Below the pieces are notes generated by a model. The model was not told the DNA's origin, made no database searches, and saw only the letters and a list, made by a program, of their open reading frames with translations. This document shows positions 13,281-54,185 of a stretch of DNA of 64,000 nt, piece by piece. How positions within the stretch are numbered: the stretch's first letter is position 1; each line of letters begins with the position of its first letter. The translations under genes were made by a program, and so were the position numbers. The DNA is from Eledone cirrhosa. Lineage: Eukaryota. Where the stretch lies: contig OZ024742.1 in NCBI GenBank assembly GCA_964016885.1, positions 69,316,001 to 69,380,000 on the forward strand, written 5' to 3'.

Positions 13281-13335
13281 ACTGCTATATATATTTCAGT
13301 GACAGCCATCTTTGGCTGTGACCTCTTCAGGCAGT
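13281..13335 (-). ncRNA. Family C hammerhead
   Basis: Reverse complement of the 16727-16781 motif. Confidence 0.8.
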
Positions 13336-16300
13336 TTGAATTAGTATGGTATAGACAAGTACATATGTTGTTGAGGTGTATAATATTGTCAATACTCTGA
13401 TATGCCCAGTTCCTTGTTGGGTTGTTATTTCACTGAGGAACTGGAGTCATATGAATTCAAACAAACGAATTTCAGTGTCAAAGGTCCTCTTCTCCTCTCA
13501 TTGGTCAGTTATTAGAACATTCCTCATTCTAAGTGTTGTTATTGCTGGAGTTAGCTTACAAAATTGATAAAATGGTAGAAGGGACAAGGTGTTAAAGGAA
13601 CAAAATAACAAAAAAAGTGTGAAACTTCCCATTGGTCAGTTTTGAGAGCATTCCTCAGTCAGAAGTCTATAGAATTCTTTCTGGGGTGAGGCCCCCTGTA
13701 GTGTTTTTGCCTGCTATTGTTCAGTACATTTGACCTCTACCATTATTTTGGTAGTGTTGTTGGTGTTGTGGTCAGCTTATATCTTGCTGCTGCTAACAAT
13801 TTAGAAGTATCCAGTGTGTTTTTTTCTTCATCCCTCCTGCCACCATCATAGTGGTGGTGGCGGTGAGGGGGGGGGGGTTCTTCCATGTATGTGAAGAAAT
13901 ATAAGGCAATAAATGAAGAAAACAGAAAATAAATATATAATATAATAAAATAATTAATATAATTTGTATAATTTGAAAATAAATAAATAAATAGAGAATA
14001 AAGAATGAAGAATAAATGAAAAATTGGTGAAAAAGTAATGAAAATGAATATGGAGAAGTGAGAAATAATGTAGGATAAAGTGTGTGTGTGTGTGTGCTAT
14101 AACCAATCTCAAGGTCAGAATATGTTGGATAGATTGGTATGAGACAAGATGTTAAGATGAGATAATCAAACTAAATGTGTTTGTGTTATAATCAATCTCA
14201 ACTTAAAAATAAATATAAGGTGATACAGTGAAGAGGGCAGAAAACAAAAACAAATTAATAAAGAGAAATCAAGATTTAAAATTGGAAATCAGAAATCTAG
14301 TAAATTAAAAAGTGTCTGTGTTATATAGATGTTGGCCAAATTATAATGGCTGTGTCCGATTCTATCTCTAGGCTATCATGGTGTCTGCTCAGCCTGGGTT
14401 GTTCCCTATGGCTTGAGGGGAGTTCACAACCTAGGGTGTTGTTACTGCCCATATAGCTTGAGGGAGGTCTGGCTGAGAGGTGTTTTCATGTTCTGTAGAA
14501 GTCCCTATAGCTTGAGGGAAGTTCACATCTTTTTGTGTTGCTACTGTCCGGGGCGGACAACGACCACCCCACAAATTCGGGCCGCGAAGATAACAAAAAG
14601 CATAGAGCCCAAAGGGGAAGCAACAGTGCGGTAACAACCAGCAACCCAACAAATCTCCAACAAATCACGAAGCCCCCGACCCATACGTATAGGAGGAGAC
14701 ACCGAAAAATCACGTGGAACAACCCACCCTACTCAACGGCCCTAAAGAAAAGCTTGGCCCGATTATTCTTTGGAGCACTTGATAAATGCTTCCCGAGGGA
14801 CCACAGATACCGCAGGATCTTCAACAGACACACTGTGAAGCTTTCGTATACCACCACGAGATATTTGGCCCAACACATAGCTAGCATCAACAGAAGTAGG
14901 CTTAAAAACCACACACAACCAGAAGATGGCAATACAAACACTCAGCAGAACCATGTGAAAGGAGGGAAGGGGGGACCCAGAGCCCACCCAAGAAACCCAA
15001 ACATTCCCGAGGACCCCCACCGAGCCTGGGGGAAGACCAACATGTAACACATAACGGGAACCCTAATCTAGGTACGCAGAGGCCAACCCCCCTCTGCAAC
15101 TGCAGAAACCCCGAATCATGCCCCCTTGGTAATGAATGCCTCAGGAAGAACCTAGTGTACGGTTGTAGGGTTAAAACCCCAACTCCGAACACCTCTACAT
15201 AGGAGCCACATCAACGAGCTTTAAAGACCGCTGGTACAACCATCGCCATTCATTCAAGAAGGAGGCCAAAAGGAAAAGCACAGCTCTCTCCGACCTGATC
15301 TGGAAGCTTAAGCTAGACAGGACCCCATACTCTCTGGCCTGGTACATAATCAGGAAAGTACCACCCGATAAAGCGGGATCTTGCATATGTAAACTATGCC
15401 TGAACGAGACCCTCGAGATACTAAGAGGTGGAAGCGGCCTGATAAACCTCAGAACCGACTTCTTAGGGACATGCAGATAACTTAGAGCCGGGACCTTTCT
15501 CAAGATATATGGACAGTAGCAACACAAGAAGATGTGAACTCCCCTCAAGCTATAGGGACTTCTACAGAACATGAAAACACCTCTCGGTCAGACCTCCCTC
15601 AAGCTATATGGGCAGTAACAACACCCTAGGTTGTGAACTCCCCTCAAGCCATAGGGAACAACCCAGGCTGAGCAGACACCATGATAGCCTAGAGATAGAA
15701 TCGGACACAGCCATTATAATTTGGCCAACATCTATATAACACAAACACTTTTTAATTTACTAGATTTCTGATTTCCAAGTTCCAATTTTAAATCTTGATT
15801 TCTCTTTATTAATTTGTTATTTATTTTCTGCCCTCTTCACTGTATCACCTTATATTTATTTTTAAGTTGAGATTGATTATAACACAAACACATTTAGTTT
15901 GATTATCTCATCTTAACATCTTGTCTCATACCAATCTATCCAACATATTCTGACCTTGAGATTGGTTATAGCACACACACACACACTTTATCCTACATTA
16001 TTTCTCACTTCTCCATATTCATTTTCATTACTTTTTCACCAATTTTTCATTTATTCTTCATTCTTTATTCTCTATTTATTTATTTATTTTCAAATTATAC
16101 AAATTATATTAATTATTTTATTATATTATTTATTTATTTTCTGTTTTCTTCATTTATTGCCTTATATTTCTTATATACATGGAAGTAACCCCCCCACCAC
16201 CACCACCACTATGATGGTGGCAGGAGGGATGAAGAAAAACACACACTGGATACTTCTAAATTGTTAGCAGCAGCAAGATATAAGCTGACCACAACACCAA

Positions 16301-51116: not shown

Positions 51117-51934
51117 TAAAGGTTAATTACATACCACACAAGCAATAACAAATCCAAGACATTGAAGAAATAAAGAATGAAAAATAATAAAAGATAAAAG
51201 ATATTGAGGAAGTAAAAATAAAAATAAAAATAAAAATAAACATTGAAAAATAAACAATGTAAAATAATTGAAGAATAAGGGGTGCTATCAGTCACAGTTG
51301 GGCGGGGTGCTGTCAACATATAGTTACATACAAGCATACACATGGATAGGAGAACAGACAAGAATAGATAAGATAGATAGGATTAGGTAAGAGTAGATAA
51401 AAAATAGGTGAAAAATAGGTGAAAAATAGGTAAAAAATAGGTAAAAAATAGACTTATAATATATATAAGAAAATATAAAAAAATATAAAAAAAACATACA
51501 TATAAAATATAAAATATACAGATAATAGTGATACAGGGTAAGGAATGAAATAAAATAGAATAAAGTAATATAAAATTAAAATTAAAATTATATAAAATAG
51601 AATATAATATAATATAATAATAAAATAAGATAAAATAAACTAAAATAAAATAAACTAAAATAAAATAAAATAAAATAAACTAAAATAAAATAATATAATA
51701 TAAGATATAATTAAATAAATAAAATTAAATAAATAAAATTAAATAGAATGAAATAAAATAAAATAAAATAAAATAAAGTAAATTGAGATAAGATATATAT
51801 TTTTTAGAATATATTTCCTGAATATATCAGGGGCTCACGAAGGCACTAAGTGTCACAGTTATCAGTATCACTTGACCATTGCAATGCAATGGAGACGTCC
51901 GAGGTTGGGCAGTCTCAAAAGTTCACTCGAAAGT

Positions 51935-54185
51935 CAATCCAAAGAACAATCGGGCCAAGCTTTTCTTTAGGGCCGCTGAGTAGGGTGGGTTGTACCACGT
52001 GATTTGTCGGTGTCTCCTCCTATATGTGTGGGTTGGGGGCTTCGTGATTTGTTGGAGATTTGTTGGTTTGCTGGTGGTTTCCGCACTGTTGCTTCCCTTT
52101 TGGGCTCTATACTTTTTGTTATCTTCACGGCCCGGATTTGTGGGGTGGTTGTTGTCTGCCCCGGGAGATCCATCGTGGGGTGGTCGCCCGTTTCCTCCCT
52201 CCCCACGTGTCCTGCGGTTGGGGTTGTCCGTCGTGGGGTAGTTAGCATCACGCCTGAGACTGCTACTCATATTGTGCTCCATCTCGTGGTCAAGCGCACT
52301 AGTCCCCACCGCCCGTGTGGTGGTGTCTGGTACATGGTGCCTATTTGATTTTGCTCTGCCTGTATTGTTAGGGTTCGCCCTCCCCCCTCTGGTAACGCGG
52401 TTGTGGGTGTCTGTTGGGCTATCCACCTCCCGGCTTTTCGGACTATATGTTATACTCCGAACACCTCTACATAGGAGCCACATCAACGAGCTTTAAGGAC
52501 CGCTGGTACAACCATCGCCATTCATTCAAGAAGGAGGCCAAAAGGAAAAGCACAGCTCTCTCCGACCTGATCTGGAAGCTTAAGCTGGACAGGACCCCAT
52601 ACTCTCTGGGCTGGTACATAATCAGGAAAGTACCACCCGATAAAGGGGGATCTTGCATATGCAAACTATGCCTGAACGAGACCCTCGAGATACTAAGAGG
52701 TGGAAGCGGCCTGATAAACCTCAGAACCGACTTCTTCGGGACATGCAGACACCTTAGAGCCGGGACCTTTCTCAAAATATATGGACAGTAGCAACACAAG
52801 AAGATGTGAACTCCCCTCAAGCTATAGGGACTTCTACAGAACATGAAAACACCTCTCGGCCAGACCTCCCTCAAGCTATATGGACAATTACAACACCCTA
52901 GGTTGTGAACTCCCCTCAAGCCATAGGGAACAACCCAGGCGGAGCAGACACCATGATAGCCTAGAGATAGAATCGGACACAGCCATAATAATCTGGCCAA
53001 CATCTATAACACAAACACTTTTAATTTACCAGATTTCTGACCTTAAAGTTCCAATCTTAAATCTTGATTTCTCTTTATTAATTTGTTATTTGTTTTCTGC
53101 CCTCTTCACTGTATAACCTTATATTTATTTTAAGTTGAGATAGATTATAACACAAACACATTGAATATCTCATCTTAACATCTTGTATCATACCAATCTA
53201 TCCAACATATTCTGACCTTGAGATTGGTTATAGCACACACACACACACTTTATCCTACATTATTTCTCACTTCTCCATATACATTATCATTACTTTTTCA
53301 CCAATCTCTCATTTACTCTTTATTCTTTATTCTCTATTTATTTATTTATTTATTTTCAAATTACACAAATTATATTAATTATTTTATTTTATTATATTAT
53401 TTATTTATCTTCTGTTTTCTTCATTTATTGCCTTATATTTCTTCATATACATGAAAGAACCCCCCCCCCCCGCCACCACCACTACGATGGTGGCGGGTTG
53501 GATGAAGAGAAAACACAAACTGAATACTTCTAATTTGTTAGCAGCAGCAAGGTATAAGCTGACCACTACAACAACAACAGTACCAAAATAATGGTGGAGG
53601 TCAAATGTACTGAACAATAGCAGGCATAAACACCACAGGGAGCCTCACCCCAGAAAGAATTCTATAGACTTCTGACTGAGGAATGCTCTCAGAACTGAAC
53701 AATGGGAAGTTTGACACGTTTTTTGATATTTTGTTCCTTCAACACCTTGTCCCTTCTACCATTTTATCAATTTTTAAGCTAACTCCAACAATGACAACAC
53801 TAATAACTGACCAATGAGAGGAGAAGGGGACCTGTGACACGAAAATTCGTTTGTTTGAATTCATATGACTCCAGTTCCCCCGTGAATTAACAACCCAGCA
53901 AGGAACTGGGCATATCAGAGTATTGACAATATCATACACCTAAACAACATATGTACTTGTCTATACCATACTAATTCAAACTGCCTGAAGAGGTCACAGC
54001 CAATGATGGCTGTCACTGAAATATATATAGCAGTAATAAACGAAGCTAAATTTTAATCATTTGACTTTTATTTAACTTTATTTTACACTACTCCGGAGTA
54101 ACCAAACCAACCTGCGCACTTCGTCGAGTGCTCCAGCCTGCATACTGAGGTGTTGGTATACAACCAACATAAACTCAAAATCTCT
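51935..54185 (+). mobile_element. PLE family C copy 2 with 5' inversion
   Basis: + strand 52455-54185 (YIGAT...CICKLC...GTCRH, HHR at 53980-54034). 51935-52455 is an upstream ORF segment on the minus strand (ITWYNPPYS). Confidence 0.88.

Follow-up and report, generated by a model that had tools for sequence, protein, structure and literature searches.

The window, by which we mean the whole 64,000-nucleotide stretch of Eledone cirrhosa DNA analysed here (assembly GCA_964016885.1, contig OZ024742.1, positions 69,316,001 to 69,380,000 of the forward strand), holds copies of a hammerhead motif belonging to three families, B, C and J, together with remnants of the Penelope-like elements (PLEs) that carry them. 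The coding remnants are as follows.

14511..15480, + strand: family C linker and GIY-YIG endonuclease fragments
26888..28794, + strand: disrupted family B ORF that encodes a Hydra-type RT with a DKT motif and a GIY-YIG endonuclease
46067..46897, + strand: family B thumb, linker and endonuclease ORF fragment with CxCX5C, CxxC and CxH motifs
52396..52791, + strand: family C endonuclease fragment, 1.2 kb 5' of the hammerhead at 53980..54034

The hammerhead copies are these.

13281..13335, - strand: family C, inverted arm of the insertion that holds 16727..16787
16727..16787, + strand: family C, stem I 16727-31/16777-81, core 16732-38, stem II 16739-64, C10.4 at 16742, C11.4 at 16761, predicted cleavage after 16776, AATAAA at 16782-87
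18018..18083, - strand: family B-related, C.C kept
21852..21917, - strand: family B-related, exceptional in having A at 10.4, still mismatched
23790..23860, - strand: family J, A-U first pair, C.U at position 4, AATAAA spanning the predicted cleavage site
24351..24415, - strand: family B, A-U first pair, C.C at position 4
30248..30312, + strand: family B, G at 11.1 and first position unpaired, C.C kept
45432..45486, + strand: degenerate family C copy, the fourth in the window, core mutated but mismatch kept
45957..46021, - strand: family B, inverted arm, stem III palindrome broken by one change
48603..48667, + strand: family B, 1.7 kb 3' of the endonuclease ORF end
53980..54034, + strand: family C, C10.4 at 53995, 11.4 at 54014, 11.1 at 54017, followed by the tail

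An earlier note had described the motif from seven of these copies, and the description proved real: all seven have the core CUGANGA/GAAA, three base pairs and then a mismatch at position 4 of stem II (C.C in families B and C, C.U in family J), as well as a U directly 5' of GAAA and an AUA triplet. Genome-wide the motif occurs far above chance, with 113,806 matches for C10.4 opposite a non-G versus 578 for the control pattern. The core, the A15.1-U16.1 pair, the NUH site and three covarying helices with the ends in stem I are those of a type-I hammerhead. Covariation, which the note had proposed as a check, is present in stems I, II and III; in a 15-copy alignment two-sided changes occur at 12 of 16 pairs, none of 500 shuffles reaches an equal score, and slid controls score far lower. 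One copy each of families C, B and J, scanned with the Rfam hammerhead models, gave no match at E-values up to 10. The Rfam scan of the full window was dominated by (TA)n matches to miRNA models, and a repeat search was swamped in the same way.

The carriers show that the three families are related. The earlier note had called them unrelated in sequence and family J an orphan; instead, their RTs are about 50-60% identical, B and J have stem I in common with intermediate sequences joining their stems, and J is very common in the genome, where an intact 821-aa ORF exists outside the window. Convergence in unrelated families can therefore be rejected. The motif lies 0.4-1.7 kb 3' of the ORF, and 45-56 nt separate its site from the element end, which runs into (TA)n in most families examined. 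We read the endonuclease traits off the J ORF and the B and C fragments against the published Hydra definition, and found a C-terminal GIY-YIG domain lacking CCHH, a CxCX5C linker, and CxxC and CxH motifs around E and N. In J, B and C, DKT replaces DKG, and the RWK-like motif reads RWT in J and RWR in B; the J ORF with its 3' region spans about 3.6 kb, versus a published Hydra norm of generally less than 3 kb. In RT trees built with database homologs, the published Hydra proteins being compared by eye, the carriers group together with support of 93/91 in one tree and only 69 in another. A JGI metagenome scan with the J protein gave no relative, and no RNA holders of family J were listed. By these sequence criteria, the hammerhead motifs of families B, C and J are of type I and stand at the 3' ends of Hydra-clade PLEs. 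For a further family with a U.U first position, no ORF could be tied to the motif in 10 regions, so its Hydra membership rests on likeness of motif and tail. A word resembling a 5' splice site, located upstream of the family B motif, was dropped as a candidate feature, as it is not seen in J or C.

Conservation of the mismatch is clearest when position 4 is left free to vary. That pattern gave 84,376 genome matches versus 605 with the reversed control; about 93% have C.Y at position 4, C faces a purine in 1,067, and only 4,784 lack C10.4. The earlier wording, C.C or C.U, holds for the cited copies and for most of these matches; the copy at 21852..21917 (-) is an exception. Across 29 sequence clusters, which share descent and are not 29 independent tests, position 4 is paired in 4%, while positions 2, 3 and 5-7 are paired in 89-100%, with compensatory changes. 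The majority state at position 4 is C.C in 25 clusters, C.U in 2, C.A in 1 and C-G in 1, a singleton whose own family has C.C in 98 of the 100 copies listed of 5,739. Among individual copies, 3 of 158 are paired at this position, and in the 15-copy alignment it is unpaired throughout (15/15); C10.4 stays constant opposite C, U or A, and each neighbouring pair is swapped somewhere. The suggestion of a conserved hammerhead subtype of Hydra-clade PLEs is supported, and the mismatch position holds in this wide alignment.

Copies repaired to C-G number only 406, scattered over many families, and none has been amplified. With position 4 rarely paired, its neighbours paired through compensatory changes and repaired copies few and scattered, the mismatch looks selected on comparative evidence. 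Among 100 repaired copies listed, four inverted pairs carry the repair in both arms, which suggests that repaired RNA could be copied at least once, or that the arms were converted; other private variants are common to both arms in 10 of 83 cases, the same range as the repaired pairs. These both-arm repairs speak against the view that a single insertion strictly depends on the mismatch. The alternative that RNA-level selection is absent, the trait being simply inherited within one clade or reflecting a DNA-level promoter motif that overlaps the stem, draws on the clustering of the carriers in the RT tree (93/91, only 69 in the other) and on the frequent occurrence of C at position 4, paired with G, in ordinary PLE hammerheads. 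We consider it very doubtful, as the flanking pairs are all compensated whereas position 4 is never closed, though one readily arising substitution would suffice.

Other parts of the motif are less strict. The earlier note had taken a non-G-C first pair as the rule, which the genome contradicts: a U in front of GAAA is missing from 24,265 matches (523 in the control), and in a count by eye of 100 family C copies listed, about 42 carry G10.1-C11.1. Over the 29 clusters the first position is A-U in 10, G.U in 9, G-C in 6, U.U in 3 and A.A in 1, and the weak or open states include A-U, G.U, U.U, A.C and A.A. The first pair is relaxed, not non-G-C, and a non-G-C pair was rejected as a defining feature. 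CpG decay as the sole source of U11.1 was also rejected, as U11.1 is shared by the two arms of pairs and by entire subfamilies. The palindromic stem III is present as claimed, running from A15.1 to U16.1, but had been quoted one base too late, and the 8-mer first quoted for J is not itself palindromic.

We next consider what an unpaired base here might do; the earlier note had suggested a tertiary contact or a site of recognition by the RT. Replacing the mismatch with C-G is predicted to stabilise the hairpin by 5.5-6.7 kcal/mol, and it may be that this cost is the whole point: a weak helix II base would keep the ribozyme slow, or let the RT, whose start lies about 50 nt downstream, read through the hairpin. 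The weak or open first pair, the uncut site retained in genomic copies and the tolerance of C, U or A at 11.4 all agree with such tuning of stability. We nevertheless think it improbable, because any mismatch anywhere would serve, yet it is always at position 4 and always a 5'-side C. Moreover, this genome has a second Hydra lineage, with 9,060 matches and a stem II fully paired beyond position 1, that copes with a perfect 8-bp stem. The existence of this mismatch-free lineage also means that the mismatch is not a general requirement of Hydra proteins.

An RNA tertiary docking site is the stronger alternative, although still an unlikely one. It would stand in for the contact between loop II and stem I that full-length hammerheads make and these long-stemmed forms cannot, and would speed cleavage without protein. 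The mismatch lies roughly level with the end of the 4-bp helix II in canonical type-I hammerheads (PMC4209133), and it keeps one position with respect to the core, whereas the length of the stem beyond it differs. However, no invariant partner base is seen in stem I, and 11.4 changes to U or A without a counterpart there. AATAAA lies within stem I or across the cut in several families, and was rejected as a docking partner, since its offset of 0-21 gives no fixed geometry. That C10.4 is fixed while 11.4 varies, with no matching change in stem I, fits base recognition better than a Watson-Crick tertiary pair.

Published motifs share much of this architecture. The PLE min-HHRs of Cervera and de la Pena (2014, PMC4209133) are likewise type-I motifs in terminal repeats, with long helix II, short helix I, a short palindromic stem III (15.2-16.2) and a predicted dimer, and in the Drosophila willistoni PLE motif (Fig. 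S3 there) the first pair is A-U, the palindrome spans 8 nt and the site is AUA. Their consensus differs in having an extra unpaired base after A9, which here faces the base before G12, and a helix II paired with G10.1-C11.1; in the D. virilis variant the bulge is one-sided, unlike the C.Y mismatch. Among the 56 published rows of that paper no position-4 C.Y mismatch was seen, although bulged letters may be lost from its PDF text. Hydra-clade hammerheads (Craig et al. 2021, PMC8557442, File S2) resemble ours in a U before GAA with a U.U or G.U first position, a palindromic stem III and (TA)n insertion. In the motifs listed there, including that of Hydra-1_Obim, stem II is short or fully paired and stem III starts with AC, and none has the position-4 mismatch or the AUA triplet; in this they are like the mismatch-free second lineage described above. 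Published PLE alignments thus already contain a first pair other than G-C, a palindromic stem III and the AUA site, and only the position-4 mismatch was not found in the two sets of motifs compared (Cervera and de la Pena 2014; Craig et al. 2021).

Judging by its title, the work of Lunse, Weinberg and Breaker (RNA Biol 14:1499) reportedly concerns small PLE-associated hammerhead variants with cleavage as dimers, and may already cover this one.

The reading we tentatively prefer, and regard as quite possible if not yet probable, is that the unpaired C at stem II position 4, in type-I hammerheads of one Hydra-clade lineage for which only dimers are predicted to self-cleave, is kept by selection as a mark that the RT-endonuclease of the element recognises. 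The 8-bp palindromic stem III would let two copies pair into a double hammerhead, a fold that lies 1.4-4.6 kcal/mol from the predicted dimer minimum and is that minimum in none of three families. The element protein might bind the C-R-Y-A face with its 1x1 loop, and so aid folding or cleavage, or hold the RNA beside the reverse-transcription start. Cleavage of tandem transcripts would release the unit downstream, in which the ATG follows after about 190 nt. The uncut site is retained in genomic copies, which suggests that reverse transcription usually acts on uncleaved template RNA. A precedent comes from an Anolis PLE (PMC11167929), whose hammerhead cleaves only with the element's protein added; on the other side, ribozyme mutants there have no effect on insertion in vitro. 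The Anolis Poseidon PAc hammerhead likewise precedes an internal reverse-transcription start, and a tail is optional; it belongs to another clade, and protein assistance is shown there where we infer it here.

A more elaborate version, to which we give little credence, is a protein-gated ribozyme switch in which the protein reads the unpaired C and chooses between a cleaving dimer and an exposed AAUAAA. If so, the ribozyme would mask or destroy the element's own poly(A) signal, and transcription would run to the reverse-transcription start and the next ORF.

In summary, hammerhead chemistry is unchanged by these observations and no new kind of element is defined, but more than 100,000 motif copies hold one unpaired C at a fixed spot of an otherwise freely changing stem. 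PLE hammerheads are poor cutters, one needs its element's protein, and insertion in vitro did not require them. One non-catalytic position that stays unpaired across RT lineages only half identical would offer a precise handle on protein or tertiary contacts, and the same genome supplies ready controls in the intact family J ORF and the natural mismatch-free sister lineage.

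The hammerhead with a mismatch at stem II position 4 is real and abundant, a variant specific to one lineage; both the ribozyme and the retroelement clade that carries it are already known. The positions and stems that the earlier note gave for seven copies were as stated when reread in the window, where broken Penelope-like elements (PLEs) lie nested amid (TA)n tracts. With position 4 left free in the pattern, the genome held 84,376 matches (control pattern 605). C at 10.4 was absent in 4,784 of these (control 541), and many of the non-C matches listed were products of C-to-T decay, inner cores of nested motifs or spurious hits; C stood opposite a purine in 1,067 (control 23). 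With the first pair left free, C10.4 faced a non-G base in 113,806 matches (control 578). A somewhat stricter pattern with position 4 closed as C-G found 406 (control 6), and many families are represented among the 100 listed.

The proposed conservation of the mismatch position held in a wider alignment. The motif set comprised 244 distinct copies from 259 loci and the window (201 passed the stem filters, 43 were dropped); 34 clusters formed, and 29 (158 copies) were kept after hits selected as exceptions were removed. Weighted by cluster, the paired fraction along stem II (positions 1-9, 29 clusters) was 0.83, 0.98, 1.00, 0.04, 0.95, 0.95, 0.89, 0.87 and 0.84. The majority state at position 4 was C.C in 25, C.U in 2, C.A in 1 and C-G in 1, a singleton whose family (5,739 matches) has C.C in 98 of 100 listed copies, by eye. 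Position 4 was also unpaired in 15 of 15 copies of a hand-picked alignment, in which families J and F9 are misaligned at columns 5-7; two-sided changes occur there at 12 of 16 pairs, and relatedness inflates such covariation scores. In a run from a second organism, every alternative letter stayed below 10% at both mismatch positions of the few J-like contigs, which give weak support, and the neighbour 10.5 varied in those same contigs. The mismatch looks selected because a single substitution closes it and does arise, yet closure is fixed in no family across deep RT divergence.

The first pair (10.1/11.1), described in the earlier note as non-G-C, is instead relaxed: the cluster majority is A-U in 10, G.U in 9, G-C in 6, U.U in 3 and A.A in 1 of the 29, and G-C is present in about 42 of the 100 family C copies listed. 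The U before GAAA was missing in 24,265 matches. At residue 17, 27 clusters have A and 2 have C, a count biased by the AUA triplet that the queries collecting most loci required. A U10.1.U11.1 start (PMC3088659) and AUA cleavage sites (PMC1636495) occur naturally in hammerheads. Stem III swaps its four inner bases among self-complementary words. The predicted monomer minimum consists of the drawn stems I and II; the 2-bp stem III of the monomer is unfavourable by about 3 kcal/mol. A strand-swapped double hammerhead lies 1.4-4.6 kcal/mol over the predicted dimer minimum. From the stem III palindrome and published PLE work, we infer that cleavage may occur as a dimer.

Family J, previously called an orphan, has a carrier: an open frame of 821 residues at locus L180 shows every Hydra-clade motif, judged against the definition and alignment in PMC8557442. 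Its RT is 55-61% identical to that of B and about 50% to that of C; endonucleases are 41-47% identical, and outside homologs, one named from Argonauta hians, 31-39%. In a first tree (12 genome rows, 32 outside homologs), the genome rows, the Argonauta hians protein and the homolog P0008 formed one side at 100/100, and mismatch carriers grouped at 93/91 under a midpoint root only. A second tree supported the genome-row side at 89-100 and the mismatch carriers at 69. The Argonauta hians neighbour would point to an octopod host. Outside the carrier group lies a second Hydra-like lineage in the same genome (L336-L341, pattern G000; 9,060 hammerhead matches, control 2), with an RT 33-42% identical to that of J. 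Its first position is open or weak, its stem II is perfect past position 1, and its stem III resembles that of Hydra-1_Obim as published (PMC8557442).

Element ends pass into (TA)n mostly 45-56 nt past the predicted cut, with a tail sometimes present, so copies would derive from RNA uncut at this site. At a tandem B locus, the ATG of the next ORF lies about 190 nt past the predicted cut. In 20.3 of 29 clusters an AATAAA lies within 35 nt, compared with 3.9 in shuffles; its permutations are rarer (at most 8.2 of 29). The offset of AATAAA ranges from 0 to 21, a variability more in keeping with a poly(A) signal than with docking. By eye, no AATAAA was found in the mismatch-free Hydra-like lineage. 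Fig. S3 of PMC4209133 draws several PLE hammerheads with AAUAAA right after stem I, uncommented in the text available. Families C, J, B and F7 share a hairpin with ACTC...GAGTGC arms beyond their usual 3' end, probably the reverse-transcription start hairpin or tail:

Window 54068-54130: ACTC...GAGTGC hairpin
L180:4560-4590: the same hairpin
L096:1605-1630: the same hairpin

Other elements and hammerheads lie alongside:

Window 7894 (-), 9794 (+), 37400 (-), 38205 (+), 41123 (-), 41484 (+): family A hammerheads
Window 8145-9827 (-): family A ORF
Window 882-4554 (+): long broken PLE that has asparagine-rich sequence inserted ahead of its RT; a relative of family A (64-71% identical)
Window 33560 (-), 51112 (-), 4810 (+), 61069 (-): hammerhead-like cores of other types
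Window 33854-36214 (+): 786-residue non-LTR RT frame
Window 42170-43505: RTE-like fragments
Window 58995-59654: old Hydra-type RT fragment of another family

Family A is a Neptune-like PLE, its motifs read by eye; its hammerhead is of the ordinary minimal type, with an extra base, a G-C first pair and a paired stem, and it has a 15-base core-plus-stem stretch in common with family C. Many copies of family K (L038, L046, L053) carry a second CUGANGA in stem II, 14 nt past the first, as a nested core; in a short-stem subfamily (L061, L065, L074, L249) the mismatch has turned to C.A and is not closed. L258 holds another example of the 33560 core type, its first pair being G-C and its palindrome 4 nt long. 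L128 and L137 hold a short recurring family whose hammerhead core has a poorly defined stem II.

Of the four features, one, the position-4 mismatch, appears undescribed, and its function is putative. No description was found in the literature listings covered on hammerheads and on Penelope-like, octopus and cephalopod elements. Hammerhead numbering and the model of loop II-stem I contact are in part general background. It is possible, and we tentatively favour this over its rivals, that the element's own protein would recognise the C10.4 mismatch, since C10.4 is fixed opposite a variable base, there is no covarying RNA partner, and an Anolis PLE hammerhead depends on its own protein (PMC11167929). 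The missing covariation counts against an RNA docking site, which we consider unlikely. Closure of position 4 would gain a predicted 5.5-6.7 kcal/mol; tuning of stability is a somewhat less probable role, and an inherited or DNA-level constraint is improbable. Among the 100 listed repaired copies, four inverted pairs (two arms of one insertion) have the repair in both arms; other private variants are shared between arms in 10 of 83, and the repaired pairs fall in the same range. These pairs, and a sister lineage without the mismatch, argue against a strict requirement for it. The second, mismatch-free Hydra-like lineage is a natural control for the mismatch.
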